Below, one piece after another: positions 12,341 through 53,693 of a stretch of 64,000 nucleotides of DNA. Source of the DNA: a virus; the IMG/VR virus record IMGVR_UViG_3300044904_000300, positions 71,822 through 135,821 of that record, one strand, 5' to 3'. A program made the translations under genes and the position numbers. Within the stretch, counting starts at the first letter, position 1, and each line of letters opens with the position of its first letter. The notes beneath the pieces are model-generated. The model saw only the letters and a list, made by a program, of their open reading frames with translations. It was not told where the DNA came from and did no database searches.

Positions 12341-12362
12341 TCTTTGAATGCTAAATAGAGGT

Positions 12363-29779: not shown

Positions 29780-30016
29780 ATGATTATCTGTAAGAAATGT
29801 GGGATGCCTTTGGCGCCCCTAGTCAGCACACAATACGAATACAAAGGACCGATTTGTGGGTGTGAATATCTCGTGACACAGCCGCAGTTCCCCGAAAACC
29901 GCTTTGAAGAGCCCACGACCTTTCAGTATGTGGTCTTTGGGGCGCTAGTCGTCGTCGCGATCTTTACTGTTGTCGGCATGATCGTGTTTGTTGCATTCGC
30001 TGCTGGCTTGTTATGA
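29780..30016 (+). CDS. Zn-ribbon plus transmembrane small protein
   Basis: CKKC..CGC followed by a C-terminal TM helix. Confidence 0.5.
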   Translation: MIICKKCGMPLAPLVSTQYEYKGPICGCEYLVTQPQFPENRFEEPTTFQYVVFGALVVVAIFTVVGMIVFVAFAAGLL

Positions 30017-30213
30017 AAACTCTGGTCTGTATTGAATGCGGACAATCGATGAAACGAGGAAGGGCGGGAATACTGTATGCGAACGGGACAATCGGTATCG
30101 TCTGCGTGGGATGCTGGCGTGACCTATGGGTCGACTTCATGCACCCCGATACCTGCGATTGTGAGCACTGCCAGCGGTGCCGGGATATACTACAACGGAC
30201 AAACCGGGGGTGA
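30013..30213 (+). CDS. Small Cys-rich protein
   Basis: CIEC, CVGC, CDCEHCQRC; start overlaps the previous stop. Confidence 0.45.
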   Translation: MKTLVCIECGQSMKRGRAGILYANGTIGIVCVGCWRDLWVDFMHPDTCDCEHCQRCRDILQRTNRG

Positions 30214-30376
30214 TAGCTCTGCAGGTCCAGAATGGACCGCTATTAGCTGGACGCAAGTATATGATTGCGAGTGGATCGGACAGGAGCGCCTTGCGCCCGC
30301 GGTACTCGAACAGCCCGCGCCCAAGCCCCCCGTCGATATGTTCCGAGGGTTCAAGCGAATCCACTAAGTATTCTGT

Positions 30377-31702
30377 ATGAGTGATCTGACCATACAGCCT
30401 GTAGATGAAGTTTGGGTGACTGTTGCTTGTGACGATGCTATCGCGCACGAACTGTCCGACTACTTCACATTCAAGCCCGACAACGTAGTTTTCATGAAAC
30501 GCCAAGCCCGCTATCGGGGCTGGGACGGATCGGTGCGTCTGTTCAAACTCAAGGACCATCGCATCTATCGGGGTTTGGTTCCTCGTCTCATCGAGTTCAC
30601 AGACCAGCATAGCTACTCTGTTGATGCACAACTCCCCGAAGTGTTCCCGTTCCTACCCGACGACGCGCTCGATGGCTGGCTGGACTGGATGACTGACCAA
30701 GGCTATGCTCCACATCCCATCAGGGACTATCAAAAAGCTGCACTTCGGTCTGCGCTCGACTCACAGCGAGGCATCATCGTGTCGCCTACAGGGTCGGGGA
30801 AGTCCTACATCATTTGGCTGCTCACGCAGGCTATCTCTGTCCCGCAGACCTTGATCATCGTCCCGACAACGGGGCTGGTCGCACAGATGCACACGGACTT
30901 CCAAAGCTACGGATGCGATCCAACTCAAATCCAAACTATCCAAAGTGGCATGTCTAAAAGTCCAAATGCCCCATTAGTGATATCCACGTGGCAGAGCATT
31001 TATGACTTGCCCGCCAGTTATTTTCGCCAATTCGGGTGCGTCATCTGCGACGAAGTTCATCTTGCAAAAGCCAAGTCTCTTACCGGGCTCATGGAAAAGT
31101 GCGATCATGTCGGTTACCGATTTGGATTTACGGGAACACTTACAGACACACAAGTTCATCGCTTGATCCTCGAAGGGCTTTTCGGGAGTGTGACGCAGGT
31201 CACGACCACGAATGCGTTAGTCAGGGCCGAACAATTGGCTCCCATTCATGTAGACATGTGTGTTCTCAAGTATCCCGAATCTGTCTGCAAACAAGTTCGG
31301 CATTTCACCTATCAGGAAGAGGTTGACTTCCTTGTGTCCTCACCCGCCAGGATGGCCTGTGTCGCACAACTTGTATCCAAGCTCAAGGGTAATACTCTTG
31401 TGCTGTTCAACCTTATCGATAAACATGGGAGACAGCTATATGAGCAAATTGAGAAACTTTGCCCGGAAAAACACGTCCATTTCGTCGTCGGCTCGGTGGA
31501 CTCCGTGGAGAGAGAAGAAGTTCGGCAGTCAGTGGAGGCAGACGACATCCAAACAACCATACATTTTGGCGACCGGTCTACTACTCTTAGTGGGGATGGG
31601 TTTGTACGCTTATCAGACGGAACGCAGAAAACGGCAGATACGATAACTGAAAACGACGATGTTGATGACGCCTGGATATCACTAAATACGAGTAATAAAT
31701 AA
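30377..31702 (+). CDS. uvsW: UvsW helicase N-fragment (motifs I-IV) plus 54-aa non-helicase tail
   Basis: WDG..RLF, SPTGSGKS, DEVHL, FGFTGTL; helicase similarity ends at EREEVRQSVE (31537). Confidence 0.9.
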   Translation: MSDLTIQPVDEVWVTVACDDAIAHELSDYFTFKPDNVVFMKRQARYRGWDGSVRLFKLKDHRIYRGLVPRLIEFTDQHSYSVDAQLPEVFPFLPDDALDGWLDWMTDQGYAPHPIRDYQKAALRSALDSQRGIIVSPTGSGKSYIIWLLTQAISVPQTLIIVPTTGLVAQMHTDFQSYGCDPTQIQTIQSGMSKSPNAPLVISTWQSIYDLPASYFRQFGCVICDEVHLAKAKSLTGLMEKCDHVGYRFGFTGTLTDTQVHRLILEGLFGSVTQVTTTNALVRAEQLAPIHVDMCVLKYPESVCKQVRHFTYQEEVDFLVSSPARMACVAQLVSKLKGNTLVLFNLIDKHGRQLYEQIEKLCPEKHVHFVVGSVDSVEREEVRQSVEADDIQTTIHFGDRSTTLSGDGFVRLSDGTQKTADTITENDDVDDAWISLNTSNK

Positions 31703-31722
31703 TACTCAGTATAGGCATCCAG

Positions 31723-32370
31723 ATGGATTATCAGAAACACTACCACACTCTCTGTAGTCGTGCTCCTAAAACTCGACCGGTAGCGGGATACTATGAACGA
31801 CATCGTATTTTACCGGGGTGCTTGGGCGGGAAATATACGACAGAAAATGTTGCCTGGCTCACTCCAGAAGAACATTATGTCGCCCATCAAATCTTGGTAA
31901 AACTCCATCCAAGTGACAAAAAACTCATATATGCAGCATATCTCATGACGATTCATGACACTGATGCGCGTTCACCCAACAAACTCTATGGATGGGTTCG
32001 TCGGTCAATGGCACAAATCACCAGTACCCGAATGCGAGGTGAGTGGAGCCTTAACCGGGATAAAATGCTGGCAGGAGTTCGTCGTAACCACATTTCAAAA
32101 GAAGACAGTGCCCAATATGCAAAAGAGTCGTGGACGAGAGATACCGGTCACCGGCGCGACCAGATACGAACGCTTCAACGAGAAACCAATGCAACGACGG
32201 CTCAGAGGAACCGTGAACTCTGGCAAACCCCCGAATATCAAGAACGAATGACATGCCGGCGGCGTGGTTCCAATAGTCAATCAATGAAGGCTCTCTGGGC
32301 GAATCCCATACGGAAACAACAAATGCTGGATGCACGAAATGAAACCATCAAAAATCGAACGCGCACATAA
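31723..32370 (+). CDS. Free-standing HNH homing endonuclease splitting uvsW
   Basis: YYERHRILP.CLGG.Y...N.A.LT.EEH..AH; TAAATA at 31683 and 31696. Confidence 0.85.
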   Translation: MDYQKHYHTLCSRAPKTRPVAGYYERHRILPGCLGGKYTTENVAWLTPEEHYVAHQILVKLHPSDKKLIYAAYLMTIHDTDARSPNKLYGWVRRSMAQITSTRMRGEWSLNRDKMLAGVRRNHISKEDSAQYAKESWTRDTGHRRDQIRTLQRETNATTAQRNRELWQTPEYQERMTCRRRGSNSQSMKALWANPIRKQQMLDARNETIKNRTRT

Positions 32371-32740
32371 AGACGCAATAATCGTAGCTTCGTACGGCGT
32401 GTTCTCAACGGGGGTGAACATTCGTCGGCTTCACAATTTGGTCTTTGCGGCAGCGGGAAAATCGAAAATCCGCACACTTCAGAGCATAGGCCGGGGATTG
32501 CGGACTCATGCGTCGAAAAGCCATATCACCTTGTATGACGTAGTGGACGACCTTCGAGTCGGGGTGCGACGAAATTATGCTTGGAAACATGCCGAATTGC
32601 GGAGTGTCCTGTATGCGGAAGAAAAGTTCCCGGTGACGATACGCGCCATCGACTTGAGCAAGTTTGTTTTGAAGACGGCGCCAAGCGTCCTGGCTTCCCC
32701 TAGGCTTGACGATGATAGTGTGGGACAGGAAACTAACTAG
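32339..32740 (+). CDS. uvsW: UvsW helicase C-fragment (motifs V-VI)
   Basis: AIIVASYGVFSTGVNI, LQSIGRGLR, LYDVVDDL; start at ATG 32330 or 32339. Confidence 0.88.
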   Translation: MKPSKIERAHKDAIIVASYGVFSTGVNIRRLHNLVFAAAGKSKIRTLQSIGRGLRTHASKSHITLYDVVDDLRVGVRRNYAWKHAELRSVLYAEEKFPVTIRAIDLSKFVLKTAPSVLASPRLDDDSVGQETN

Positions 32741-32797
32741 TGCGGGAAACCGCGTCTCGTAAAACGACGCCTAAAGCGTTCTGCGGAGTGTGCGACT

Positions 32798-33100
32798 ATG
32801 CTTATTGCTTACTATCTCCTGCTCATGTCTGCCGTTATTCTCTATAACGTGTTTGACTATCTTTCGTCTGTTAAAGCTCTTGCTTCTAATCCGAATGCCA
32901 AAGAACTCAACCCGATCTTACGTTGGACTGGATTGTTCAAAGGAAAGATTGTGATATTAGGGTTTCAGCTTTTTGCGTTTTCCTATTCGTTCTGGAAGGG
33001 ACCATATCCTGCTGAAACAGGAATGACCGTCTTTGTAGTCACTCTAGCCTACATCGGGATCATCATACACAACTATCACGTTGCATCGGGAACAGATTAG
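32798..33100 (+). CDS. DUF5658-like membrane protein
   Basis: D..S...L......E.NP with hydrophobic helices. Confidence 0.55.
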   Translation: MLIAYYLLLMSAVILYNVFDYLSSVKALASNPNAKELNPILRWTGLFKGKIVILGFQLFAFSYSFWKGPYPAETGMTVFVVTLAYIGIIIHNYHVASGTD

Positions 33101-33120
33101 TTTGCCGTTTTGTATTAACT

Positions 33121-33218
33121 ACCTTAAGGTTTTAAAGGTCGAGACCTAAGACCTTAAAAGATTGGGGTTTTAAGATCTCGAAGACCTAAGACCTTATAGG
33201 ACTTTAAGTTACTTAAAG
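33121..33218. repeat. AT-rich TTAAG/AGACCT repeat tract
   Basis: AGACCTAAGACCTTA at 33142 and 33182; palindrome ACCTTAAGGT at 33121. Confidence 0.7.
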
Positions 33219-33281
33219 CCGAAAACGCATCGGCAAACAAAAGTCAAATTTTTTGAAGTCTGGCGAAAACGGAGTCACCAA

Positions 33282-33464
33282 ATGGCCGACGGAACGCAAC
33301 TCATTCAGCCCGGAGACAGGATCAAAATCTCCTCGGGGCAGTATCCAAATGCAGTCAAGTCCGGTCCCTTTAGCACAGGTTCGATGATCGTGGAGTGGGT
33401 AGAAATCAAAGATGGAATCAAGGAAATCTGGGTGCACCGAGATGACACACCTACATCAACCTAA
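33282..33464 (+). CDS. Small hypothetical protein (SH3-like)
   Basis: IQPGDRIKI motif; GGAG RBS. Confidence 0.45.
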   Translation: MADGTQLIQPGDRIKISSGQYPNAVKSGPFSTGSMIVEWVEIKDGIKEIWVHRDDTPTST

Positions 33465-33867
33465 GGGGTCATCTTGTTGTGGACAAACGTGTGTAGCGAT
33501 GGTGACAGAAACGACGCTTGATGAAGTGGTGGACGTGATCGGACGCGCCGGAACACACTATACGACGCTCCGAAAAGCGGCACAAGTGCTCACCGGTGAA
33601 GAACTGCCGTTCGGGCCGATCACACAGAGCCGAGGACGATGTATCCCTATCAGGGGGACATACATCGCTCGCGTCATTTGGTCGAGAAAGCCGCACGCTT
33701 CACATTTCATAGTCGTGCATAACGAATTTGTCTATGACCCCGACGGGTGGGAGTATCTGATGCTTCTCACCGACTGGCTCACCGAAGAACGAAAACGTCG
33801 TTGTTCACCGGACTTGAATATCACTTCCTGGGTGGAGGTGTTTCGTAAGAAAGACCTTGACAAGTAA
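33442..33867 (+). CDS. Peptidase C39-like protein
   Basis: Q....CG.TC.AM, H(F)IVV, YDP. Confidence 0.6.
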   Translation: MTHLHQPKGSSCCGQTCVAMVTETTLDEVVDVIGRAGTHYTTLRKAAQVLTGEELPFGPITQSRGRCIPIRGTYIARVIWSRKPHASHFIVVHNEFVYDPDGWEYLMLLTDWLTEERKRRCSPDLNITSWVEVFRKKDLDK

Positions 33868-33885
33868 GCACATTCGTCGTATACT
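33857..33885 (+). promoter_or_regulatory. Sigma70-type promoter upstream of g55
   Basis: TTGACA-N17-TATACT. Confidence 0.7.
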
Positions 33886-33937
33886 ACCTATAGTATTCCG
33901 CTGAATAGTTCGCAGGCTGCGAACAAAGGAACATGAA

Positions 33938-34474
33938 TTGGCAAAGACTCCTACCCATTACGTTGATAACGCTCGCTTCTTGGCTGAGATCAAAGCCTAT
34001 CGAGCTGCGTGCATAAAGGCGAAACGCACCAAAACTCCCTCACCACAGATACCGGAATACATCGGTAAGTGCTTTCTGGATATTGCGACTCACCTCAGTT
34101 ACAAGCCGAACTTCGTGGCCTACACCTACCGAGAGGACATGATTTCGGATGGGATCGAGAACTGCCTGGTCTACTTCCACAACTTTGATCCCGACAAGTC
34201 GAGCAATCCCTTTGGATACTTTACCCAAATCATTTACTATGCGTTCATTCGCCGGATTCAAAAGGAACGCAAGCACACCTATATCAAGTATAAGTGCTTG
34301 GAGCAGTCGGTGATTGATGGTGGAGCGCATACAGATTCGCCAAATGGCGCACATATCCCCGCTGACACGACGATGTTGGAGTTTGATAATGTGAAAGACT
34401 TCATCCGCCGGTTTGATGATTACACCGCTGGACGAAAAGAGCGCAGGAAACAGGCGAAAGTCGAAAAAGCATGA
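33938..34474 (+). CDS. g55: Late transcription sigma factor gp55
   Basis: HYVDN..FL, IA..LS.KPNF..YTYREDMISDGIENC, FDP.KS.NPF.YFTQI.YYAF.RRI.KE. Confidence 0.96.
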   Translation: MAKTPTHYVDNARFLAEIKAYRAACIKAKRTKTPSPQIPEYIGKCFLDIATHLSYKPNFVAYTYREDMISDGIENCLVYFHNFDPDKSSNPFGYFTQIIYYAFIRRIQKERKHTYIKYKCLEQSVIDGGAHTDSPNGAHIPADTTMLEFDNVKDFIRRFDDYTAGRKERRKQAKVEKA

Positions 34475-36657
34475 ATGTAATGTTGAAACAAGGTGATTGC
34501 CGCACCCTCTTGAAAGAACTTCCGGAGAACAGCGTTGATAGCGTGGTGACAGACCCACCGTATGAACTATCGAATGACGGAAAGGCAAGCGCCAGTCGGG
34601 TCTTCCTTGAAATGATGTTCCCACAAAATGCGAATATCAAAACCGAGTTGTCTGGCGAGGACTATCTTTCGTTCCTCGTACAGAAGGTTCTTTGTTTGAG
34701 TGGTATCACTGGGTTCCCAACTCCAGCGACCACCGTGCCAATAAGTTCCATGACATTCAATGGCAAGTCGCCGTTGGGGAATAAGGATGTCGAACACGCA
34801 AGCATAAGTGCCGTCGGTGTTTCGGATGGGGAAACTAGTGTTGATATCGGCCCCGAGGGAACGGAATACCTCGGCTGCTTTATGTTCAAACTTGCTAACA
34901 CGACTGCCGCACTCCAAGCGTTGAATAGCATTGGCACGGGCTTTGATGCGGGCGGCATCGGGGTAGGGTTTGGTATTACGACGACGAGTTACCCAGGCTT
35001 TCTTCATAGCCTCACTTCGGTTGATATCGGAGACCATAACATAGGGTCGTTCAACAATGCGTTTTCTCAACTGATAAGCACATTTGGCCGAGCAGAATAT
35101 TTGTCCGTGCCGCGCTTTAGTGCCGGCGGGGGAACGGTAGAACATTTCTCCACATACGGGGCATTGGTATTGCTTGCCCTTCTCAAGCAAACCGGCTCGC
35201 AAGTGGTAAGAACATTGGCGGGAACACGTCGTTTGCCGGCCATGTTTGAGCCTCGTCATATTTGCGTAGTAGATGATATCACAAACAGGGCAGTGTCGTT
35301 CGACATCATTGTTCATAACCAGTATTTAGCATCCACTGGGTTTATGTCTAAAGGCTGGGACGGCTCCAAAATCGCCTATGATGTCTTGATGTGGGCAGAG
35401 GTGCTCCGAGTGCTCAAACCGGGCGGACACATGCTCGCTTTTGGGGGCACTCGCACACATCATCGGATGACCTGTGCGATAGAAGATGCGGGGTTTGAAA
35501 TACGAGATGAACTGGACTGGATCTATGCGTCCGGGTTCCCCAAGTCTCTGAATGTCTCAAAGGTCATCGATAAGCAAGCGGGACATACCCGCGCATCATC
35601 CTCTGTGCCGAACATGAAGAACAAGGTGTATGGCAAAGGTATGGGCGGGGGTGAATGGAATGCGCCGAGCGAACCTGCTGTGACTGACGCAGCCAAGCAG
35701 TGGGAGGGGTGGGGCACAGCACTCAAACCAGCACGAGAGCCCATCGTCCTCGCACGAAAGCCTATGAGTGTTTCTATTGCGAAGAACATACAGGAACATG
35801 GGACGGGTGCGATCAACATCGATGCGACTCGTATTGGTGGGAACCCGGGATACAAATATGCTGCGGACCGCAACGGGACGACCTTTCATGGAGAACAGGG
35901 CGAACGAATCAAGCAGACAGCGGAGAAAAAGGGCTCGGAGTTTATTGAATCCTCAAAGGGACGCTGGCCCGCAAATGTGCTGCTCTCACATTCACCTGAT
36001 TGTGTGTGCGTTGGATCGCATGTTGAACCTGGCTATGTCATCAATCGGTGGGACGATGGCTCGAAACCCTTTGGAGACGGCGCGGGGCATCCATTTACAT
36101 CGGAGCAACAGCCTGATGAGGTCATCGAAGAATGGCGTTGCACACCAGACTGCCCGGTGCGTCAGTTGAACGAACAGAGCGGTGACCGGCCAGGTTTTGT
36201 ATCTAATGGAAACGCTACAGTTGGTGAAACGTCTGATGGTGTCACTCCGTTTCGCCGCGGAACGGGTGGTATATGGCATGAAGGAAATGGTATCCCTTGT
36301 GGGCCGCAATATAGTGATAACGGCGGAGCAGCGCGGTTCTTCTACGTCGCTAAGCCCTCTAGAGCAGAGCGAGAGGCCGGATGCGAACACTTGCCGGTCA
36401 AGACCACACCAGAGACCGTGGGACGGGACCCCAATAGTGCTGGAGTACGCAGCCCCCGTGCAGGTGCTGGGCGCGGAGCCGGCACACCACTCTTGCGTTG
36501 TACCGTGTGTGGATGCGACGGAGGCGGAGGACGTTATGTGTCGCAGTGTGTGGACGGGGGTTCGCATCGTTTTGAAGCGGCAACTTATGTGATGAAACCA
36601 GATACACCACCAGAAATAGTGGCACAAATACAAGCACTATTAGGGCAAACTCTCTAA
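34471..36657 (+). CDS. Beta-class amino-DNA methyltransferase N-fragment with 256-aa in-frame insert
   Basis: GDC..LLKELPENSVDSVVTDPPYEL [insert 34570-35337] GFMSKGWD, RVLKPGGH, WIYASGFPKS, GRWPAN, AARFFY.AK. Confidence 0.88.
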   Translation: MNVMLKQGDCRTLLKELPENSVDSVVTDPPYELSNDGKASASRVFLEMMFPQNANIKTELSGEDYLSFLVQKVLCLSGITGFPTPATTVPISSMTFNGKSPLGNKDVEHASISAVGVSDGETSVDIGPEGTEYLGCFMFKLANTTAALQALNSIGTGFDAGGIGVGFGITTTSYPGFLHSLTSVDIGDHNIGSFNNAFSQLISTFGRAEYLSVPRFSAGGGTVEHFSTYGALVLLALLKQTGSQVVRTLAGTRRLPAMFEPRHICVVDDITNRAVSFDIIVHNQYLASTGFMSKGWDGSKIAYDVLMWAEVLRVLKPGGHMLAFGGTRTHHRMTCAIEDAGFEIRDELDWIYASGFPKSLNVSKVIDKQAGHTRASSSVPNMKNKVYGKGMGGGEWNAPSEPAVTDAAKQWEGWGTALKPAREPIVLARKPMSVSIAKNIQEHGTGAINIDATRIGGNPGYKYAADRNGTTFHGEQGERIKQTAEKKGSEFIESSKGRWPANVLLSHSPDCVCVGSHVEPGYVINRWDDGSKPFGDGAGHPFTSEQQPDEVIEEWRCTPDCPVRQLNEQSGDRPGFVSNGNATVGETSDGVTPFRRGTGGIWHEGNGIPCGPQYSDNGGAARFFYVAKPSRAEREAGCEHLPVKTTPETVGRDPNSAGVRSPRAGAGRGAGTPLLRCTVCGCDGGGGRYVSQCVDGGSHRFEAATYVMKPDTPPEIVAQIQALLGQTL
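34567..35316 (-). CDS. Vsr/DUF559-like endonuclease with N-terminal Zn fingers, nested antisense inside the methyltransferase
   Basis: CPVC..CS..C repeats; SKFE....E, FDILIP...LAIECHG.YWHG; own TAAATA on the minus strand (35323-35328). Confidence 0.85.
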   Translation of the reverse strand: MNNDVERHCPVCDIIYYANMTRLKHGRQTTCSRQCSYHLRAGLLEKGKQYQCPVCGEMFYRSPAGTKARHGQIFCSAKCAYQLRKRIVERPYVMVSDINRSEAMKKAWVTRRRNTKPYPDAARIKARANAIQRLECGSRVSKFEHKAAEVFRSLGADINTSFPIRNTDGTYACVFDILIPQRRLAIECHGTYWHGGRWSWEPSDTTQTKNLLYEERKIVLARQLGFDIRILWEHHFKEDPTGACLSVIR

Positions 36658-36673
36658 TACCCTAAATAGATGT

Positions 36674-37375
36674 ATGCACACACAAACTTGTCTTGCTTGT
36701 GGAACGACCTTTACTCGGGCCTATCGCCGAAAATACTGTTCACACCGGTGTTATGCGACAAGTCCTAAACCACTGCGAAGAACGGCGCAAAGTGTGGTAT
36801 GTGCTCAATGTGGGAATAAACTAACTCGGGTTCCGTCACGCATCCAAAAAACTGCGAACCAGTTTTGTGATAAGACCTGCTATGATACTTACCAAAGCCG
36901 GTATAAGGACACCTTTACTTGTAAGACCTGTGGGGATGTGTTCGAGCGGAGCCCATCACGCAAAAAGACCAATAGCGTAAAATATTGTTCGATTGCGTGC
37001 CGCACTGCGGACCCCGAATGGGTGTTGAGTGCGTGTATTCGTGGCAACGAAGTGCAGCAGCATAAAGTGGGGCCAAACAAGTTAGAACTGGCCGGGCGGA
37101 GTATTCTTACAGAGTTGGGCTGTGAGTTTAGAGAACAGGTGCTCCTATGTGAGAAGTTTTTGGTTGATGTGCTACTTCCTACAAACATCATTGTGCAGTG
37201 GGATGGAATATACTGGCACACAGAACCGAGGCGGGCTGCGTTAGACCGCTCACAAGATGCCTACCTGAAGAAATGTGGATATCAGGTGTTGCGTTTTACT
37301 GACGACCAAGTGTATAATGAAAGAGAGTTTGTCCGTGATACTATCGCAGGAACAATACAACAAACTGCCAAGTGA
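36674..37375 (+). CDS. Vsr/DUF559-like endonuclease with Zn-finger repeats splitting the methyltransferase
   Basis: C..CG..F...YCS..C repeats; NKLE, VDVLL....IVQWDG.YWH, D.YL...GY.VLRF; TAAATA at 36663. Confidence 0.85.
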   Translation: MHTQTCLACGTTFTRAYRRKYCSHRCYATSPKPLRRTAQSVVCAQCGNKLTRVPSRIQKTANQFCDKTCYDTYQSRYKDTFTCKTCGDVFERSPSRKKTNSVKYCSIACRTADPEWVLSACIRGNEVQQHKVGPNKLELAGRSILTELGCEFREQVLLCEKFLVDVLLPTNIIVQWDGIYWHTEPRRAALDRSQDAYLKKCGYQVLRFTDDQVYNEREFVRDTIAGTIQQTAK

Positions 37376-37701
37376 GTTGCAGTCCTATTTTGAAGCGGAG
37401 GTTGGGGTGGGAGTGCATAACTTCCACCCCACTTGAAGCCGTAAAACCCATTTTATTGATGCGCTATCTCTGCCTACTCGTGACACCTCCAGGCGGCATC
37501 GTGCTCGATCCCTTTATGGGTTCCGGCACAACGGGGTGTGGAGCGGTGCAAGAGGGGTTCAGGTTCATCGGGTTTGACTTGGAAGCGGAGCATGTCGAGA
37601 TTGCTAAGGCGCGTATCGCCTATTGGACGACGCACAAGCATAAGATCGACACGCCTCTTGCGAAAGCCCTTGACACGCGCAAAGACGCCGTGTTATTCTA
37701 A
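37372..37701 (+). CDS. Methyltransferase C-fragment (motif I, SAM binding)
   Basis: VKP..LMRYLC.LVTPPGG.VLDPFMGSGTTG; the conserved HPT preceding VKP lies in a different frame. Confidence 0.85.
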   Translation: MSCSPILKRRLGWECITSTPLEAVKPILLMRYLCLLVTPPGGIVLDPFMGSGTTGCGAVQEGFRFIGFDLEAEHVEIAKARIAYWTTHKHKIDTPLAKALDTRKDAVLF

Positions 37702-37748
37702 TAGGCGCACAATATGATGTGTGGTGTTGATGTATACTAAATACTCGT

Positions 37749-38279
37749 ATGGGACATTTTATAGACCTGACAGGACAGATATTTGGTCGTTTGATAGTAA
37801 TTCGTAGAACGCCCAATAAGAAAACCACTACTATGTGGGAATGCTTATGTGAATGCGGCAATACTACGGTTGTTGATGCCTCGGCGCTTCGGAGTGGCAA
37901 TACTCGTAGTTGCGGGTGTCTTCATAACGAACAGGCTGCAAAAAACATCGCTCGTGCGGACCTTGTTCGTAAACCAGCCGCATATTACCGGTATGTTGAA
38001 CCGAAAAGCGGATATGTAAGAGTTGGTAATGTTGAATATCCGGGCTCGAAGCCCTTTCCTAATTCCGCATACGAGCATAGAGTTATAATGGCACGTCATT
38101 TAGGACGACCATTGCGGAAAGGTGAAACGGTGCATCATTTGAATGGGAATAGACAAGACAACCGCAATGAAAATCTTGAGCTTTGGTTGAAAACACAGCC
38201 CTCTGGGCAGCGTCTTCAAGACGTGCTATCTCATGCGGAACATCTATTACGAGCATATAGACCGGAGTTGTTTAAGTGA
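37749..38279 (+). CDS. HNH homing endonuclease
   Basis: DLTGQ.FGRL.V, W.C.CECG, SCGC, YEHR..M..HLGRPL...E.VHH.NG...DNR..NLEL; TAAATA at 37738. Confidence 0.88.
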
Positions 38280-39373
38280 AGGTAGGCATTTTTTCTGATA
38301 CTCACCATGGAGCCCGTAACGATTCTGGCGTCATGCAATTGTCAATGCGAAAGTTCTATGAGCATATTGTTTTTCCAACACTCAAAGAACAAGGCATTAC
38401 TCGTGTTATTCACGCCGGAGATTTTTGTGATAGACGAAAATACATCAACGGAAACACCGCAAGGTTTATAAACGATGTATACGATGCCCCTATGCAAGAA
38501 TTGGGAATATCTCAAGATATCTTATTGGGCAACCACGATATTTACTATCGTTCTTCAACAGAAGTGAGTTTGGTGGAAGACCTCTACCGGCATGTGACGG
38601 ACCGAGTGCATGTGCATTCGCAACCCACGGAAATTAATATCGCCGGGTGCGACATTCTTCTGCTGCCGTGGATAACAGATAACAATAGGGTAGCATCGAT
38701 GCGGCACATCGAAGATAGTAAATGCTCTATTGTTATCGGACACTTAGAAATTGCTGGCTTTCAGATGTATCGTGGGCTTTCAACAAATGAAGGAATGCCC
38801 GCATCATTATTTGATAGATTTGAATTGGTGATGTCAGGTCATTATCATCATAAATCACAGCAAGGCCCCATTTTCTACCTTGGTTCGATGTTTCCGATGA
38901 TTTGGAGTGACTATCAGGACCCCCGAGGGTTCCATTTGTTTGATACCGAGACACACGAACTGACCTATATCGAAAATCCGTATTCACTCTTCGTCAAGAT
39001 TCTCTATGATGACGCGGGACAGAAGCACGACTACATCAAGAAGCTCGCGCAGGCCATTCTCGCGCCGGACTCACCCTACCACGATGCGTATATCAAGGTG
39101 ATTGTGAAAAGCCGCGAACAACCGTATTGGTTTGATGTGCTTCTCGATTGCCTTTATAAAGTGAATGTGCAGGATGTGCTGGTAATAGACGACATCATCG
39201 TGGATGATGCGGACGAAACGGATAGCACCAACATTCCCGACTTGGATACGCTGACGCTCATGAAGGACTATATCGACACGCTTTCGATTTCGTGCGATAA
39301 GGATGCGTTGTTTGCGTATCTGCGTGAGAAATACCAGGATGCAGTAGCGGCAACCCAAGATGGACGCCTGTAA
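38276..39373 (+). CDS. g47: Recombination nuclease gp47 (Mre11/SbcD-like)
   Basis: DTHHG, GDF.D.RK, LGNHD, GHLE, SGHYH, YLGS. Confidence 0.93.
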
Positions 39374-39430
39374 ATACTCTAATGTAGAACCATAGATGTA
39401 TTATAAATACAGGTGTTCATAGGAGGTGTT

Positions 39431-39958
39431 ATGCCGTTCAAAGTGGCTATTGACTTGACCGGTCGTAAGGTTGGAAAGCTCGTCGTTCTTGCCCGAGCCG
39501 GAAAGAATAAATGGGGGCATCAGTTATGGGAGTGTGAATGCGAATGTGGTGCGCGATATGTTACTTCCGCAACACATTTGGCAACAGAAAAAGTAAAAAG
39601 TTGTGGATGCCAGTTACGAGCATCAGCGCGGGCCCGCCGGGGCGAAAAACACCCCCGATGGAAAGGCGGCCGCCGCGAAGATAAGAATGGGTACATCACT
39701 ATTCGTTGTTATGATTATCCGGGCGCAACAGGTTCGGTTTCGGTTTATGAGCATCAAGCAGTTATGGCGAAACATTTGGGCCGGCCTATTATGATAGACG
39801 AATCAATACATCACCGAAATGGAATCCGTAACGATAATAGGCTCGAAAATTTGGAGCTTCGTGTTTCGTATCACGGGCAGGGACAAACAATCGATGACGC
39901 CATCGCTTTAGCCCAGAGTATCCTGCGCCGTTATGCTCCGCACACATTAGTATGCTAA
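39431..39958 (+). CDS. HNH homing endonuclease, paralogue of 37749..38279
   Basis: DLTGRK.GKL.V, W.C.CECG, SCGC, YEH..VM..HLGRP, HH.NG.R.DNR.ENLEL; TATAAATA at 39402; AGGAGG RBS. Confidence 0.88.
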   Translation: MPFKVAIDLTGRKVGKLVVLARAGKNKWGHQLWECECECGARYVTSATHLATEKVKSCGCQLRASARARRGEKHPRWKGGRREDKNGYITIRCYDYPGATGSVSVYEHQAVMAKHLGRPIMIDESIHHRNGIRNDNRLENLELRVSYHGQGQTIDDAIALAQSILRRYAPHTLVC

Positions 39959-41664
39959 CCTTTACCCGCATTTCATACAAAAATTTCCTAGCAGCAGGAA
40001 ACTCACCCATCGTAGTTGACCTCAATACTCATCAATCGACCCTTATTGTCGGGCATAATGGAGCGGGGAAATCGACTTTGAGTGAGGCCATCTGTTTCGC
40101 TTTATATGGAAGACCTCTCCGAAATGTGAACAAGCCAAAACTTGTCAATTCGATTAACGGACGAGATTGCTTAGTCGAATTGGATTTCAAGACCAATAGC
40201 GGGGTGTATCGTATCAAGCGCGGTATCAAACCGAACATTTTTGAAATCTACGAGAACGGAACGCTTATACCCTCACCGGCTTCCGCTTTGGACTACCAAA
40301 CATTACTTGAAACTAATATTTTGAACTTGTCATTTCGGGCGTTTCAACAGGTGGTCATTCTTGGGAATACATCATATACTCCATTTATGCGGTTAGCCGC
40401 CGGCGCTCGCCGTGAACTTGTCGAGTCGCTTTTAGATATCGGGATTTTCTCGGCGATGAATGCGTTGACGAAGGACGAACTGACCACGCTGAAGAATGAG
40501 CTTGACAAGTGCATTCAGGCAAAGGGGCTTGTCGGTGAACAGGTCAAGATGGCGCAGAACTTCACGGAGCATCTGGAAGAACAGCGTCAGCAGCAATTGG
40601 CGGTGATTGACACCAACATCGAGCAAGTTAGCAACACCATACTGGAAACGCAATCAGCGATTACAAATCTGGAATCGGACTTACTGGAGTATGATACCGA
40701 TCACAAGGCGTTCACTGGGGCGTTTGAGAAGAAGTCGGACTACGAGCGCAACAGGTTTGCCATACAAGCCAAGCTAAAAGAGTTAGCCAAAGAGCGAGCG
40801 TTCTATGCAACGAATGATATTTGCCCAAAGTGTGAGCAATCTCTGACCGATGACCTGAAACAGGGACGCTATAATACGCTAGACAGTAAAGAAGATGGGG
40901 CGAACAAAGCTCTGGCGCAGTGTGATACGTTGATTGCCAAGTATGGTGGGATCGTCGCAACAGCGAACGCCGAACTTGCAAATGCCAAGACGCTAGAGAA
41001 CCAAATCGCCGCACAGCAGTCTTCGCTTCGCGTGTATGAAACACGGCGAGCAGAGCTTCGCAAAGAACGAGACAAGCTCGAATCGGCGACCGTGAGTACC
41101 CCGCAGGCAGTCGATGCCGAGGATCTCCAACGGCAACTTGGTGAGCTTGTAAAAAAACATGATGACTTGTCGCAAAAGCGTGTTATAATAGATGCTGCTG
41201 GAATGCTCTTGCGGGATAGTGGCATCAAGTCCAAAGTAATACGGCATTACATTCCGATCATCAATCGGACAATCAACGCCTATTTGACTGCGATGGATTT
41301 CCCGATTGCGTTCACGCTGGATGATGAGTTCCAAGAGAAAATCAAGAGCCGTTATCGTGACGACTTTGCGTATGATAGTTTTAGCGAGGGTGAGAAGAAG
41401 CGTATTGACTTGGCGCTCCTCTTGACCTGGCGAGCCGTAGCGCGGTTGAAGAACAGCGCAGCCAGCAACCTCCTGATACTGGATGAAGTGTTTGATGGGT
41501 CGCTAGACGCCAACGGGACAGAAGAGTTCCTGAAGATCATCGCGGGGCTGGAGAAGGATACGCGGGTTTTTGTCATCTCGCATAAAACGGATGTCCTCGT
41601 AGACAAATTTGCTCATACCATTACGTTCCAAAAGAACAGAGGGTTTTCGGAGATCAAAATCTAA
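39952..41664 (+). CDS. g46: Recombination ATPase gp46 (Rad50/SbcC-like)
   Basis: [13 protein letters not shown] hook, [28 protein letters not shown]. Confidence 0.95.
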
Positions 41665-42023
41665 TGGGTGGTAAGCATTCGCAGGAGTGGTCGCGGGCAT
41701 ACTGGGTGAAGAACAAAGAGCGCATTAAGGGAGTCCGCCAAGCACGTAAATTGGCGGACTATGACGCGCATTGTGAACGAGTGCGGAACGTCAATCTCCA
41801 AAAGCGGTACGGGCTCACCCCCGATGAACTCGCGGATATGACGCAAGCACAAGATGGCGTCTGTAAGATATGTGGCACTGTCGGACCCCGTGGACTGATG
41901 GTAGACCATGACCATACAACAGGTAAAGTGCGCGGACTTCTATGTGAACATTGCAATAGAGGCCTCGGCGGTTTCAAAGACGACGTAAAATTGTTGCGTA
42001 AAGCAAGTGAGTATCTGATATGA
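41664..42023 (+). CDS. Endonuclease VII-family (His-Me finger) protein, probable HEG
   Basis: [30 protein letters not shown]. Confidence 0.85.
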
Positions 42024-49990: not shown

Positions 49991-50969
49991 GTTGGTATTT
50001 AGAGCGCGCCCGGGACAGAGGCTAAGACTGGACTCTGGCAATAAGTTAGAGGGATTCAGATGGGCAGAGAGTGTGCCGAGGACTGGCAAGGTCCCCGGTG
50101 GGGACCTGACTATAGTGGAGGGAAGTGGAGAGGGGTGGGGAGCGAGAGCGGGCAGCGCGGCCCTAGGCGCAAGAATGCCTTGCGGGCAAACGAATAGGCG
50201 CAAGAAGGGATATGAGAGGAATGGGTAAGGAAGGCTGGAGTTTTGGGGCCTGGGCCAAAGATGATGAGAAGGGACATGAAGGGACATGGGGTTTTTGGAT
50301 TCGGCTAAGCGCCCCGACGAAGGCGAAACCTCATGGCACCTTAAGGTATAACAGGTATAAGCTATGGCCTAGGCCTCCTCGCGCGCCCCGAAACTTTGGC
50401 GTTCGGCAAGTGGCGATTTCGTGGTGTGTGTTTAAGAGTATTAATATAACTCGATATAACTTCCATAACACTTCATAACACTTCGCAGCACTTCGAAAAA
50501 CTTCGTCGTTCGCAAGGCCGCACAGAGCACGGGCTAACACTTACCGAAATTGAAACTCGCACAACGTTTGAAGTATTCTGTGTGTAGTCTCGTTCAGGTG
50601 TTAATATAAGTTCTATAAAATTTCGACATGTGCATTCCACCAGTTGTGCGACCGCCAAAGTCTGGTAGAGTTTATGGCCTTCATGGCCCGGGGCCCCGGG
50701 GCGGGGGGCTGCAGCCCGGAGCCTAGGCCCTGTGCGGCATTTTCTTGTGTCAAGTTTTGAGGGTGTGCATTAATAATGAACGCCTCACGCCTTCAGAGAC
50801 CTAATGAAAACTCTAATGTTTTTACATGGTGCGGAAACTTGCCGAGCATACCAAAAATCAGGCAAAATGCTAATGTTTTCGGCAGCGTAAGAAAAGCGAA
50901 AGTCGATCCCTGTAACCTGTTGCGTTTATTGGTGTGCTAAAATAGGACACTTTAAGGGGCAGAATTCAG

Positions 50970-50998
50970 TAGACAAGCGGGGGCCATGAGCGTATAAT
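50970..50998 (+). promoter_or_regulatory. Early sigma70-type promoter (leaderless candidate)
   Basis: TAGACA-N17-TATAAT; ATG 6 nt downstream. Confidence 0.7.
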
Positions 50999-51004
50999 AG
51001 AATC

Positions 51005-53506
51005 ATGAAGTCGAGCACTGCTCAAGTCACTAGTATGTTGGATCTGTTCAACGATTCGAAGCGTGCGGTGGCGAACCTGATGGCGCGTGAAAACATCACC
51101 GTCCAGGTGATTGACGGGCTCGACACCGCGAAGTTCTCGCCGGAACTTCGAATCCTTCAAGTGCCGAATTGGACCGGTCTGACCGTGGAGCAGTGCGACC
51201 TTCTGATGTCGCATGAAATCGGTCACGGGCTCTTTACTTCGCGTACCGCCGGCAAGGGTCTGAAGCCTGGACTGTTCTCGTACCTGAACATCATCGAAGA
51301 TGCTCGCATCGAGCGCCGCATGAAGGGCGCGTTCCCTGGTCTCGCCCCGACGTTCTTCAAGGGCTATCGCGAATTTCACACCAACGGCCCGATCCTGAAG
51401 GGGACCAACACTGCGTTGATCAACCCCAAGACCGGTGAACAGGTCGCGATTGCTTCCATGAAGCTCATCGACCGTATCAACCTCCACTATAAGATCGGCG
51501 CGTTCGCGACGGTCCCGTTTACCGCCGAAGAGCGTGTGTGGCTGTCGCGCATCGATAAGGCGACCTCGACTGAGGATTGCCTGACTATCGCCCGCGAGCT
51601 GCACAAACTCGCGAAGGAACGGGACACGAAGGAACAACAGCAGAACCCCTCGAACCAGCCGAACCCCTCGAAGGGGCCCAAGCAGGAAGAGACCGAAGAG
51701 TCGGATTCGGATAACTCGCAGGACCAGGACGCCAGCGATGGTGAGAGCCAGGACGGCGACGAAGACGAATCGGACGACCAGAACGGTGCGGGCGACACGT
51801 CGGACGAAGAAGACGAAGACGAAAAAGACGGCGAAGGCGCTGGCGACGAGGACGAAGACGAAAAAGACGCCGATGGTGGAAACTCTGCCGACGGCGAATC
51901 TGACGAAAACGACGAAGACGAATCGGACGAAGCCAAGAGCAAGAGCGATGGCGACAACCCGCATGGTCAGGACCAGCAGAAGGACGCGTCGAACGCGGCC
52001 GGTGCTAACGATGACCCGAGTGCGGATACTGACGACCAGACGCAGGAAGGGCTGAAGAACATCGCCGCGAAAGCGGGTACGAGTGTTGTGCAACATCTTC
52101 TCTATCCGGTGCTCAACGATGAGGTCATGAAGGATCGAATCGTTATGGCGCGCGATTTCGCTGAAAAAGCGCACAAAACCCTCGCCGCGAATGGCGTAGC
52201 CGCGTCGGAACTTGAGGCGCTCGAAGGCATTTGGAATGATCAGTTTCTTATGACCGCGAAGCATATGGCGCTGGAGTTCGAACGCCGTAAGAATGCCAAG
52301 TGCCTCGCGAACGTCAAGACCGCGAAGTCGGGGAAGCTCGACCTGACGAAGCTCTCGCAGTATCGCTGGACCGAGGACCTCTTCAAGCGTTCCATGACCG
52401 TGCCGAACGGCAAGTCGCATGGCATCGTCATGATGATCGACGGTTCGGGCAGTATGTCGTCGCAGTTCGCTGCCGTCATCGACCAGACGCTGCTCTTCGC
52501 GGTGTTCGCCTTCCAGGTGAATATCCCGTTTGAAGCTTACATGTTCTCGGACGCTGCTGCGCAGGATGCGAATGGTAACCCCATCCGCTTCTCGTTTGTG
52601 TCGCAGGGGCTGAATACGTTCACACTCGGCGAGTCGGGCCGCCTGATTGGCCTCGTGAATACGACCACGGACCGTGCGGGTTTCAAGCGCCAGATTCGTG
52701 CGCTGCTTGCTGTGAAGACCGCGTATGACCGCAAAGCTAACGTGTCGCAGGAACTGTCGGGCGCTGTCCATCAGATTCCCGATGCGGCGCTGTGCGGCAC
52801 GCCGTTGTTTACGGGCATGATGATTGCCGAGCGTATTGTCGCCCGCATGAAAAATCAGCAGAAGCTCGATAAGACGACCTTCATCGTCATCACCGATGGC
52901 GAGGACACGAACCGCCTGTGGTTCAAGACGAACACGCCTGACCCGTATGCGTATGCACGCCGCGCTGGTTACACCAGCCTCGACAGCCCGTTCGTCGTGC
53001 GCGATGCAGTCACGAAGAAGAATCTCTCGTTCGTGCAGACCGACACGTATTATGGTGCGACCATGCCGCAGAACGGGGTGCTGACTATGCTCCTCGACGT
53101 CATGAAGCTTCGCCATGATACGCGCACCGTGTATATCTACATGCAGGAAGATCGCAGCCAGTATTACTACTCGTGGCAGAAGCCCAAGCGCGTGACGTAT
53201 CGGACCGATGGGTTCGACTATCTCATCCGTGCGGGGAAGCAGGAAGCTGCGAAGAGGATCGAGCCGACGACGATCACCGAGGCGCTCCGCGCTGATGGTC
53301 AGTATGTGCTGCCGTCGGACATCGCTGTGGCGGACCTCGCGATCATCCTGCCTGTGGGTAGCGTGACGCTGACGGAAGACGAATTCAAGAAGCTCGATAC
53401 TGCCGACCTCACGCAGAAGAAGATCGCTGCGGAGTTCACCAAGAGCATGGTGAAGGCACAAGCGAATCGCAAGTTCGTCAACAGCGTGGTGCCTCACCTC
53501 GCGTAA
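51005..53506 (+). CDS. CobT-like/VWA protein with HExxH N-domain and acidic linker
   Basis: HEIGH, NIIEDARIE, D/E-rich linker, MIDGSGSM (MIDAS), TPL, ITDGE. Confidence 0.85.
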   Translation: MKSSTAQVTSMLDLFNDSKRAVANLMARENITVQVIDGLDTAKFSPELRILQVPNWTGLTVEQCDLLMSHEIGHGLFTSRTAGKGLKPGLFSYLNIIEDARIERRMKGAFPGLAPTFFKGYREFHTNGPILKGTNTALINPKTGEQVAIASMKLIDRINLHYKIGAFATVPFTAEERVWLSRIDKATSTEDCLTIARELHKLAKERDTKEQQQNPSNQPNPSKGPKQEETEESDSDNSQDQDASDGESQDGDEDESDDQNGAGDTSDEEDEDEKDGEGAGDEDEDEKDADGGNSADGESDENDEDESDEAKSKSDGDNPHGQDQQKDASNAAGANDDPSADTDDQTQEGLKNIAAKAGTSVVQHLLYPVLNDEVMKDRIVMARDFAEKAHKTLAANGVAASELEALEGIWNDQFLMTAKHMALEFERRKNAKCLANVKTAKSGKLDLTKLSQYRWTEDLFKRSMTVPNGKSHGIVMMIDGSGSMSSQFAAVIDQTLLFAVFAFQVNIPFEAYMFSDAAAQDANGNPIRFSFVSQGLNTFTLGESGRLIGLVNTTTDRAGFKRQIRALLAVKTAYDRKANVSQELSGAVHQIPDAALCGTPLFTGMMIAERIVARMKNQQKLDKTTFIVITDGEDTNRLWFKTNTPDPYAYARRAGYTSLDSPFVVRDAVTKKNLSFVQTDTYYGATMPQNGVLTMLLDVMKLRHDTRTVYIYMQEDRSQYYYSWQKPKRVTYRTDGFDYLIRAGKQEAAKRIEPTTITEALRADGQYVLPSDIAVADLAIILPVGSVTLTEDEFKKLDTADLTQKKIAAEFTKSMVKAQANRKFVNSVVPHLA

Positions 53507-53507
53507 T

Positions 53508-53693
53508 TTGGAAGGACTGAGAGAGAACATGGGAAACCCTGCTAGTGAAACGCTTCGAATGCTGCCGAGTGCCCCCACGGGTAACACCGCGCATATCGGA
53601 CGCATCGAGTCCATTATCACCTCGTTGGTGATGCGAATTGCGGACCTTGAAGGTCGCCTTTCGAAGCTAGAACAGAAGGTGGAGAAGATATAG
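53508..53693 (+). CDS. Small coiled-coil protein
   Basis: C-terminal heptads; start probably ATG 53528. Confidence 0.4.
   Translation: MEGLRENMGNPASETLRMLPSAPTGNTAHIGRIESIITSLVMRIADLEGRLSKLEQKVEKI

Follow-up and report, generated by a model that had tools for sequence, protein, structure and literature searches.

A Vsr-Fold Endonuclease Gene Embedded Antisense and in Codon Register in a Viral DNA Methyltransferase Gene

Introduction

The phage-borne homing endonuclease I-Bth0305I and its relatives reside in group I introns or inteins, and the elements of T4-like phages home without an intron, lying beside or inside a conserved target gene that they either adjoin or split. The free-standing homing endonucleases of T4-like phages, together with the gene-splitting mobA/gene 60 and mobE/nrdA cassettes, have been reviewed (PMC2988022). 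Another arrangement was described in actinophage methylases, in which a stop-free, non-splicing insert, the ShiLan domain, conceals an HNH endonuclease gene that shares the strand of its host but is read in a different frame (Gosselin et al., 2023, PMC9957025; Arsenault, Gosselin and Gogarten, 2025, PMC11855218). Here we describe an endonuclease gene, referred to as HEG1, that lies on the opposite strand within a DNA methyltransferase gene of a virus represented by the IMG/VR record IMGVR_UViG_3300044904_000300. The stretch analyzed comprises 64,000 nucleotides (positions 71,822 to 135,821 of that record) and is referred to as the window; coordinates are window positions unless otherwise given.

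A first-pass annotation of the window, made from its letters and open reading frames (ORFs), knew of no description of this strategy. This holds in part: the stop-free, non-splicing insert had been published as the ShiLan domain, but its antisense, Vsr-type form is not described there. The text of PMC11855218 mentions neither antisense, Vsr nor DPPY, and our literature searches found no description of an antisense form of such an insert. The ShiLan domain is the closest published relative of the HEG1 arrangement. Judging from sequence comparisons, we consider it likely that HEG1 is a mobile Vsr-fold zinc-finger homing endonuclease and that the methyltransferase is translated through it with neither intron nor intein.

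Results and Discussion

The Insert and Its Two Reading Frames

The host gene belongs to the beta-class N6/N4 DNA methyltransferases, as its 728-residue product matches the Pfam family PF01555 (N6_N4_Mtase) at 33.5 bits, above the curated cut-off of 26.7, and carries a DPPY motif (34552-63). Its start codon overlaps the stop codon of an upstream late sigma-factor gene (phrog_234) as ATGA. In 98 of 114 close methylase homologues, just three residues separate DPPY from FMGK, for example DPPYELAFMGKKWD in P0002, the nearest relative (78% identical). In the window, 768 nucleotides (nt) lie between the last base of DPPYEL (34569) and the first base of GFMSKGWD (35338). The minus strand of this insert encodes a complete endonuclease, HEG1, and the host frame runs through its plus strand without a stop, the two ORFs being in exact codon-complement register; the TAG stop of HEG1 is the complement of a host Leu codon, CTA (34567-69). 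The first-pass annotation had reported the split of DPPYEL from GFMSKGWD, the complete minus-strand gene beneath an open host frame, and the shared stop codon, and its observation is confirmed in every detail checked. The public protein collection contains the read-through ORF of the window (P0001, 725 amino acids), and not the endonuclease of 249 amino acids, which gene calling on this contig had concealed.

Among GenBank phages, the best matches to the methylase are mycobacteriophage methylases at ~44% identity. A megablast search of the same phages with 5 kb gave zero matches, and a tblastn search with HEG1 gave just three distant, partial matches.

HEG1 contains four CxxC pairs, and its C-terminal domain matches Vsr, weakly so in Pfam (E 1.6e-4; 21.9 bits, under the curated cut-off of 27). 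An AlphaFold (AF2) model computed from 23 homologues has a predicted local distance difference test score (pLDDT) of 82.8, and its top Foldseek matches are Vsr (1cw0/1vsr) and the homing endonuclease I-Bth0305I (3r3p). Within the motif FDI ... ECHGxYWHG, D176, G190 and H194 are invariant across the 23 sequences, and E187 and W193 nearly so. The catalytic residues of HEG1 presumably correspond to D51, H64 and H69 of Vsr.

Depletion of Three Codons in Embedded Copies

In exact antisense register, a stop codon in the host frame arises solely from a TTA, CTA or TCA codon of the endonuclease. HEG1 has none of these among its 15 Leu and 13 Ser codons; for HEG1 alone, judged by how the exteins of its methylase (the host segments on either side of the insert) use codons, this is only modestly unlikely (P ~0.0045). 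Three other endonuclease genes of the window have 9, 5, and 6 such codons, so that the first-pass remark that the remaining endonuclease genes show no comparable open antisense frame holds for the three checked.

By endonuclease searches and homologue-alignment searches we gathered 147 loci from viral and metagenomic contigs, 91 of them non-redundant, near-full-length homologues with 27-65% identity; all relatives come from uncultured contigs. Loci were referred to as embedded when N-terminal and body segments of a methylase flank the endonuclease on the opposite strand, a class that is set by the flanks alone and is therefore independent of whether the insert is open. Zero TTA, CTA or TCA codons were found in 48 of the 49 non-redundant loci so defined, and the summed log10 P over 44 loci is -113 when the codon usage of each locus's extein serves as the null and loci are treated as independent. 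A motif-based inspection widens the embedded set to 69 loci, 68 of them stop-free, with the open frame itself having been used for some of the extra members. The depletion is complete even in AT-rich loci: in locus L103, TTA and CTA make up 56% of the Leu codons of the extein and are absent from the 20 Leu codons of the endonuclease (P ~1e-9), and in L061 the corresponding P is ~1e-10.

By contrast, the 12 clearly non-embedded homologues each contain 3-14 TTA, CTA or TCA codons (2.95% of codons), and stop-free free-standing copies are confined to contigs with a GC content of 0.6. The expected difference between embedded and free-standing copies is thus borne out, high-GC contigs excepted. In the endonuclease tree, embedded and non-embedded states interleave, with at least five changes forced by supported branches, and non-embedded copies nested within embedded clades have 5-13 antisense stops. 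Because the depletion is lost in these nested copies, it depends on context and is not a property of the lineage.

Family-Wide Anatomy and Selection on Each Frame

The junctions seen in the window recur across 60 non-redundant loci. Where the endonuclease ends in TAA or TAG, the stop is complementary to the Leu codon of DPPYxL; where it ends in TGA, the stop is complementary to the Ser codon that comes next after this Leu. The ATG of the endonuclease lies opposite a His codon, and the 7-20 further host-frame codons between it and GFMGK contain the 5' region of the endonuclease. The ends of the insert are variable, and the residue at +1 after it is Gly in all 60 loci. In L002, L090, and ~40 other insert-bearing loci, HPTVKP and the FxGxG motif for binding S-adenosylmethionine (SAM) are in one frame.

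Between pairs of insert-bearing loci, the ratio of nonsynonymous to synonymous divergence (dN/dS) is 0.17-0.43 in the methylase exteins, 0.14-0.39 in the endonuclease frame, and 0.4-1.1 in the insert DNA read in the methylase frame, values that in overlapping frames are only indicative. Nucleotide variability by codon position of the endonuclease frame follows the order 3 > 1 > 2. The low dN/dS of the exteins and the endonuclease frame indicates that both genes are under purifying selection and are maintained, and the insert-bearing relatives are not accumulating plus-strand stops (48 of 49 have none), an accumulation that the first-pass annotation had named as refuting its proposal. The read-through peptide evolves nearly neutrally, constrained little beyond staying open.

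An AlphaFold model of the intact insert-bearing methylase of L090 (699 amino acids) has a confident core (pLDDT 80-98), which takes in the 30 residues ahead of the insert, and most of the insert itself falls below 50. The read-through peptide thus probably forms a floppy, disordered loop in this model. At the same site, 14 insert-free homologues have unrelated loops of 8-48 residues, which marks the site as permissive. These loops were also compared with the inserts as possible remnants of decayed copies, and bore zero resemblance to them.

Mobility and Two Lifestyles

Insert-free alleles of the methyltransferase exist: the insert is present in just 2 of the 114 nearest methylases and is missing from P0002. 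Each of the three outcomes by which the first-pass annotation would have been refuted (stop-free antisense frames in free-standing homologues, plus-strand stops in insert-bearing relatives, a lack of insert-less alleles) was checked, and all three checks favor its reading. Identities of endonucleases and of exteins are weakly correlated (r = 0.35). In loci L095 and L098, the endonucleases are 98% identical (synonymous divergence, dS, 0.016) and the exteins 72% identical (dS 1.0); the block that they have in common, 1153 bp at 97% identity, consists of the endonuclease plus flanks of ~280 bp and ~85 bp. A trio of loci (L087, L088, and L016) has a dS of ~0.2 in the endonuclease vs. ~0.85 in the extein. 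These comparisons indicate that the endonuclease is far younger than its hosts, and hence that it homes; homing in which the flanks are co-converted is expected to leave such a pattern.

In at least eight loci (L092, L080, L070, L053, L062, L128, L104, and L064), a free-standing homologue of HEG1 lies 30-75 nt upstream of an uninterrupted gene for a methylase of this family, in divergent orientation. An upstream divergent position is the classical place of an intron-less homing endonuclease beside its target. As read from these loci, the endonuclease family has two lifestyles, embedded in the target and beside it, and switches between them.

Putative Promoter of HEG1

Ahead of the HEG1 ATG, the window has a promoter-like layout in which TAGACA is followed by a spacer of 16 or 18 nt, by TAAATA or AATACT, and then by the ATG. 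The -35-like TAGACA is the antisense of the host M-S-K codons. In the close subfamily the consensus is TTGCCC, 17 nt, TATAtT, 6 nt, and ATG, with the TTGCCC hexamer being the antisense of the host M-G-K codons, and 13 of 21 close relatives have TAnnnT at -12 to -7. Such a layout suggests a promoter that is partly built from host codons and an mRNA that is leaderless or nearly so.

The first-pass annotation had pointed to TAAATA and a hairpin, AACCCAGT/ACTGGTT, just before the ATG. Both are present, TAAATA at 35323-28 on the minus strand, and the hairpin is imperfect and only modestly more stable than shuffled controls (-8.5 kcal/mol, z -2.2). The 12-mer GATGCTAAATAC (35322-35333), which contains the -10 element, has exactly two copies in the 135.8-kb genome, the second at G000:C1:47173-47184, and each copy lies at the 5' edge of an endonuclease-type cassette. 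These two cassette-edge copies fit the earlier idea of a late-promoter type of this phage, which the motif probably represents. GCTAAATA also occurs upstream of a GAGG-ATG gene start at 12350.

A Second Cassette and a Split Methyltransferase Gene

In the window, the HPTVKP motif and the SAM-binding FxGxG are not in the main frame of the methyltransferase, and lie beyond a second endonuclease cassette (HEG2) and a 7-nt gap. The HEG2 cassette (818 nt) is inserted just before HPTVKP, between 11-bp direct repeats TTTTGAAGCGG (36570-80 and 37388-98), and the gap, TGAAGCC (37434-40), starts with a stop codon (ACT TGAAGCC GTA, 37431-37443). The N-terminal fragment of the methyltransferase thereby gains a tail (...PPEIVAQIQALLGQTL), and the C-terminal fragment gains its own ATG and a leader (...EQYNKLPSELQSYFEA).

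Two other loci bear on this arrangement. In L151, another methylase is interrupted at this position by a HEG2 of 48% identity; its tail and leader peptides resemble those of the window, and the gap is absent. In L180 (5040-5063, minus strand), ACC TGAGGCC GTA falls exactly between HPT and VKP of a diverged split methylase, which lacks the endonuclease, yet remains split and has kept the leader and the 7-nt gap. When viral contigs were scanned for HPT-TGA-N4-VKP, 29 matches came up; 28 are unrelated sequence, a number close to the chance expectation, and the remaining one, L180, is a true methylase. The recurrence of the gap in L180, the tails in L151, and the 88% identity of the C-terminal piece to P0002 together suggest a maintained genes-in-pieces methylase with unusual decoding rather than decay. 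The 7-nt gap is a candidate for a short translational bypass or for frameshifting; re-pairing of the Thr-tRNA from ACY to GCC across the gap is one speculative possibility.

Proposed Mechanism and Alternative Explanations

In the mechanism that we propose, HEG1 is lodged in the catalytic-loop codons between DPPYxL and xFMGK, on the opposite strand and in exact register, where TTA, CTA, and TCA can be replaced by synonymous codons and would be removed by selection. The methyltransferase would be translated straight through the element, with the ~256 extra residues forming a poorly constrained, probably disordered loop. The endonuclease would probably be transcribed from a promoter of its own, with its -10 element in the insert and its -35 element partly in host antisense codons, as an mRNA that is leaderless or nearly so. 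It would presumably cut insert-free DPPYxL-GFMGK alleles, its predicted site, and spread by repair with co-conversion of the flanks. We infer both that the long read-through protein is made and active and that HEG1 has this cleavage specificity. When all parts are joined, ~770 bp would be translated on both strands into two selected products, an endonuclease and a methyltransferase with a 256-residue loop, providing homing endonucleases with a third way, besides introns and inteins, to reside in an essential motif, which works through synonymous recoding, a host-codon promoter, a leaderless mRNA, and a 7-nt gap that ribosomes hop or shift across; we lean toward this combined reading by a small degree.

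Several points weigh against translation through a maintained, antisense homing element. Four antisense stops occur in L021, an embedded locus on a 1-kb contig covered at 2.9x, which is the sole exception to the depletion. The dN/dS values are confounded by the overlap itself. Third positions of the endonuclease are somewhat less variable in embedded copies than in free-standing ones (0.47 vs. 0.60 variable at 60-75% amino acid identity, with few free-standing pairs), and the loop may accordingly not be wholly unconstrained, unless a difference in age or composition between the two sets is the cause. A loop of 256 residues adjoining the catalytic DPPY might impair the enzyme. The methylase of the window itself may be made in pieces, or be dying, in which case its open frame could be a relic.

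The last of these points leads to the view that HEG2 and the 7-nt gap have already turned the methyltransferase of the window into a pseudogene, in which the open frame is inherited and no longer maintained. The plus frame does end at a TAA (36655-57), ahead of HPTVKP and motif I, and the C-terminal part is spread over two further frames. Yet the C-terminal piece, with its own ATG, is closer to P0002 than the body is (88 vs. 78% identity), a TGARGCC gap with a similar leader recurs between HPT and VKP in the diverged L180, the cassette tails are conserved in L151, and HEG1 still has zero antisense stops. We therefore hold this view to be rather unlikely, though one to be reckoned with. Much less probable in our judgment is that the insert is removed by an unrecognized route, such as an unconventional intron or excision or cleavage at the protein level, with the open frame needed for the passage of translation. 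An Rfam cmscan for group I and group II introns returned nothing relevant at E up to 10 (34300-35600) or up to 1 (30000-42000), so that an intron was rejected both for the insert and for the 12 kb around it; with 750 of the 768 nt taken up by the endonuclease ORF, a ribozyme core would have no space, and an intron would need neither a stop-free frame nor a length divisible by three. An intein was likewise rejected, as Pfam found only PF01555 and no intein or Hint domain in the 728-residue product, and the residue at +1 is Gly rather than Cys, Ser or Thr. The ends of the insert are variable, where an intein would end in His-Asn, and its near-neutral read-through peptide is unlike a catalytic splicing domain. 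Nothing speaks for removal directly; the first residue of the insert is often Ser or Thr, and the ShiLan authors, too, left this possibility open.

There is finally the view that only one strand truly codes and that codon usage or chance has left the antisense frame open. Antisense frames in register are indeed kept open most easily; one of 214 codons (35992..36636) lies in the methylase extein, so that a single case could not decide the matter, and the high-GC free-standing homologues, too, have 0-1 of the avoided codons. However, the depletion is complete even in the AT-rich loci L103 and L061 and vanishes in non-embedded sister copies, and the methylase exteins on both sides are in frame and conserved. 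The per-locus codon-usage nulls and the sister copies outside the host gene rule out chance and codon bias, and the confident Vsr fold, free-standing homologues, and dN/dS of the endonuclease rule out its being an artifact of the methylase strand, which leaves this explanation next to no probability. Translation of the methyltransferase through a mobile HEG1 is the reading that we prefer to all of these.

Features of the Window

Table 1. Coordinates of HEG1, the interrupted methyltransferase, and HEG2 in the window.
Feature	Position	Strand	Description
Methyltransferase ORF	34471..36657	+	728 amino acids
Methyltransferase N-terminal segment, M1 to DPPYEL	34471..34569	+	Aligns with P0002 residues 1-33
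Insert, 768 nt = 256 codons	34570..35337	Both strands open	Methyltransferase residues 34-289
HEG1 endonuclease gene, 249 amino acids + stop	34567..35316	-	Two CxxC..CxxC zinc fingers and a Vsr-fold nuclease domain
HEG1 5' region	35317..35350	-	-10-like TAAATA/AATACT (35321-35328), 4-6 nt ahead of ATG; -35-like TAGACA (35345-35350)
Methyltransferase body, GFMSKGWD onward	35338..36657	+	Ends with a 26-residue cassette-derived tail and TAA
HEG2 endonuclease gene, 233 amino acids	36674..37375	+	Zinc fingers and DUF559 (Pfam)
Leader of methyltransferase C-terminal piece	37317..37440	+	ATG 37317, 39 codons ending in HPT, then 7-nt gap
Methyltransferase C-terminal segment, VKP... DPFMGSGTTG (SAM-binding motif I)	37441..37701	+	88% identical to P0002

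Downstream of these genes, two paralogous HNH endonuclease genes (37749-38279 and 39431-39958; phrog_374 / phrog_20891) flank an SbcD-like gene (gp47 homologue, 38333-39373), the first lying before it and the second between it and an SbcC-like gene (gp46 homologue, 39952-41664). Elsewhere in the window, at 50966-53614, two very long ORFs overlap on opposite strands, one of 882 amino acids on the minus strand and one of 833 amino acids on the plus strand that contains no TTA, CTA or TCA.

Significance

Should the read-through protein be produced and functional, homing endonucleases would have a way into conserved coding sequence without splicing machinery. The two overlapping products would then be among the longest and most widespread opposite-strand protein pairs (~250 codons in ~70 lineages, down to ~30% identity). 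The system also has a built-in control, in that sister copies lying outside the host gene have the forbidden codons again, making selection on an antisense frame directly measurable. Since gene callers annotate just one of the two genes, such elements systematically escape the annotation of phages and metagenomes. Methyltransferase engineering may, in addition, benefit from the permissive loop after DPPY.

Comparison With Known Systems

The Vsr-like catalytic fold links HEG1 to I-Bth0305I (EDxHD; PDB 3R3P), which the HEG1 model matches with a Foldseek probability of 1.0 and a TM-score on the target of 0.69, and both are phage-borne mobile endonucleases aimed at conserved coding sequence. HEG1 differs in having neither intron nor intein, in its N-terminal zinc-finger array, and in an identity of only ~12%. 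Like an intein with a homing-endonuclease domain, the HEG1 insert is in frame, interrupts a conserved catalytic motif, and would be translated with the host protein; unlike an intein, it has no Hint domain, is followed by Gly, and has its endonuclease read from the other strand, outside the host polypeptide.

With the free-standing endonucleases of T4-like phages, the HEG1 family shares intron-less homing, including the members beside a methylase, and HEG2 with its stop-containing 7-nt gap resembles, by analogy, the layout of T4 gene 39, mobA, and gene 60. HEG1 departs from these elements in that its host gene stays one reading frame through shared codons on the other strand.

The likeness to the ShiLan domain extends further. 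Both are in-frame, stop-free inserts in the same methylase family that lack intron and intein signatures, both have read-through peptides predicted to be poorly ordered loops, and both have a disjunct distribution indicating homing and an endonuclease missed by gene callers. In ShiLan, however, the endonuclease is of the HNH type, lies on the same strand in an alternate frame, and occupies a different site, whereas HEG1 has a Vsr fold and lies on the opposite strand, in exact register and directly after DPPYxL, so that the cost of the overlap shrinks to avoiding three synonymous codons.

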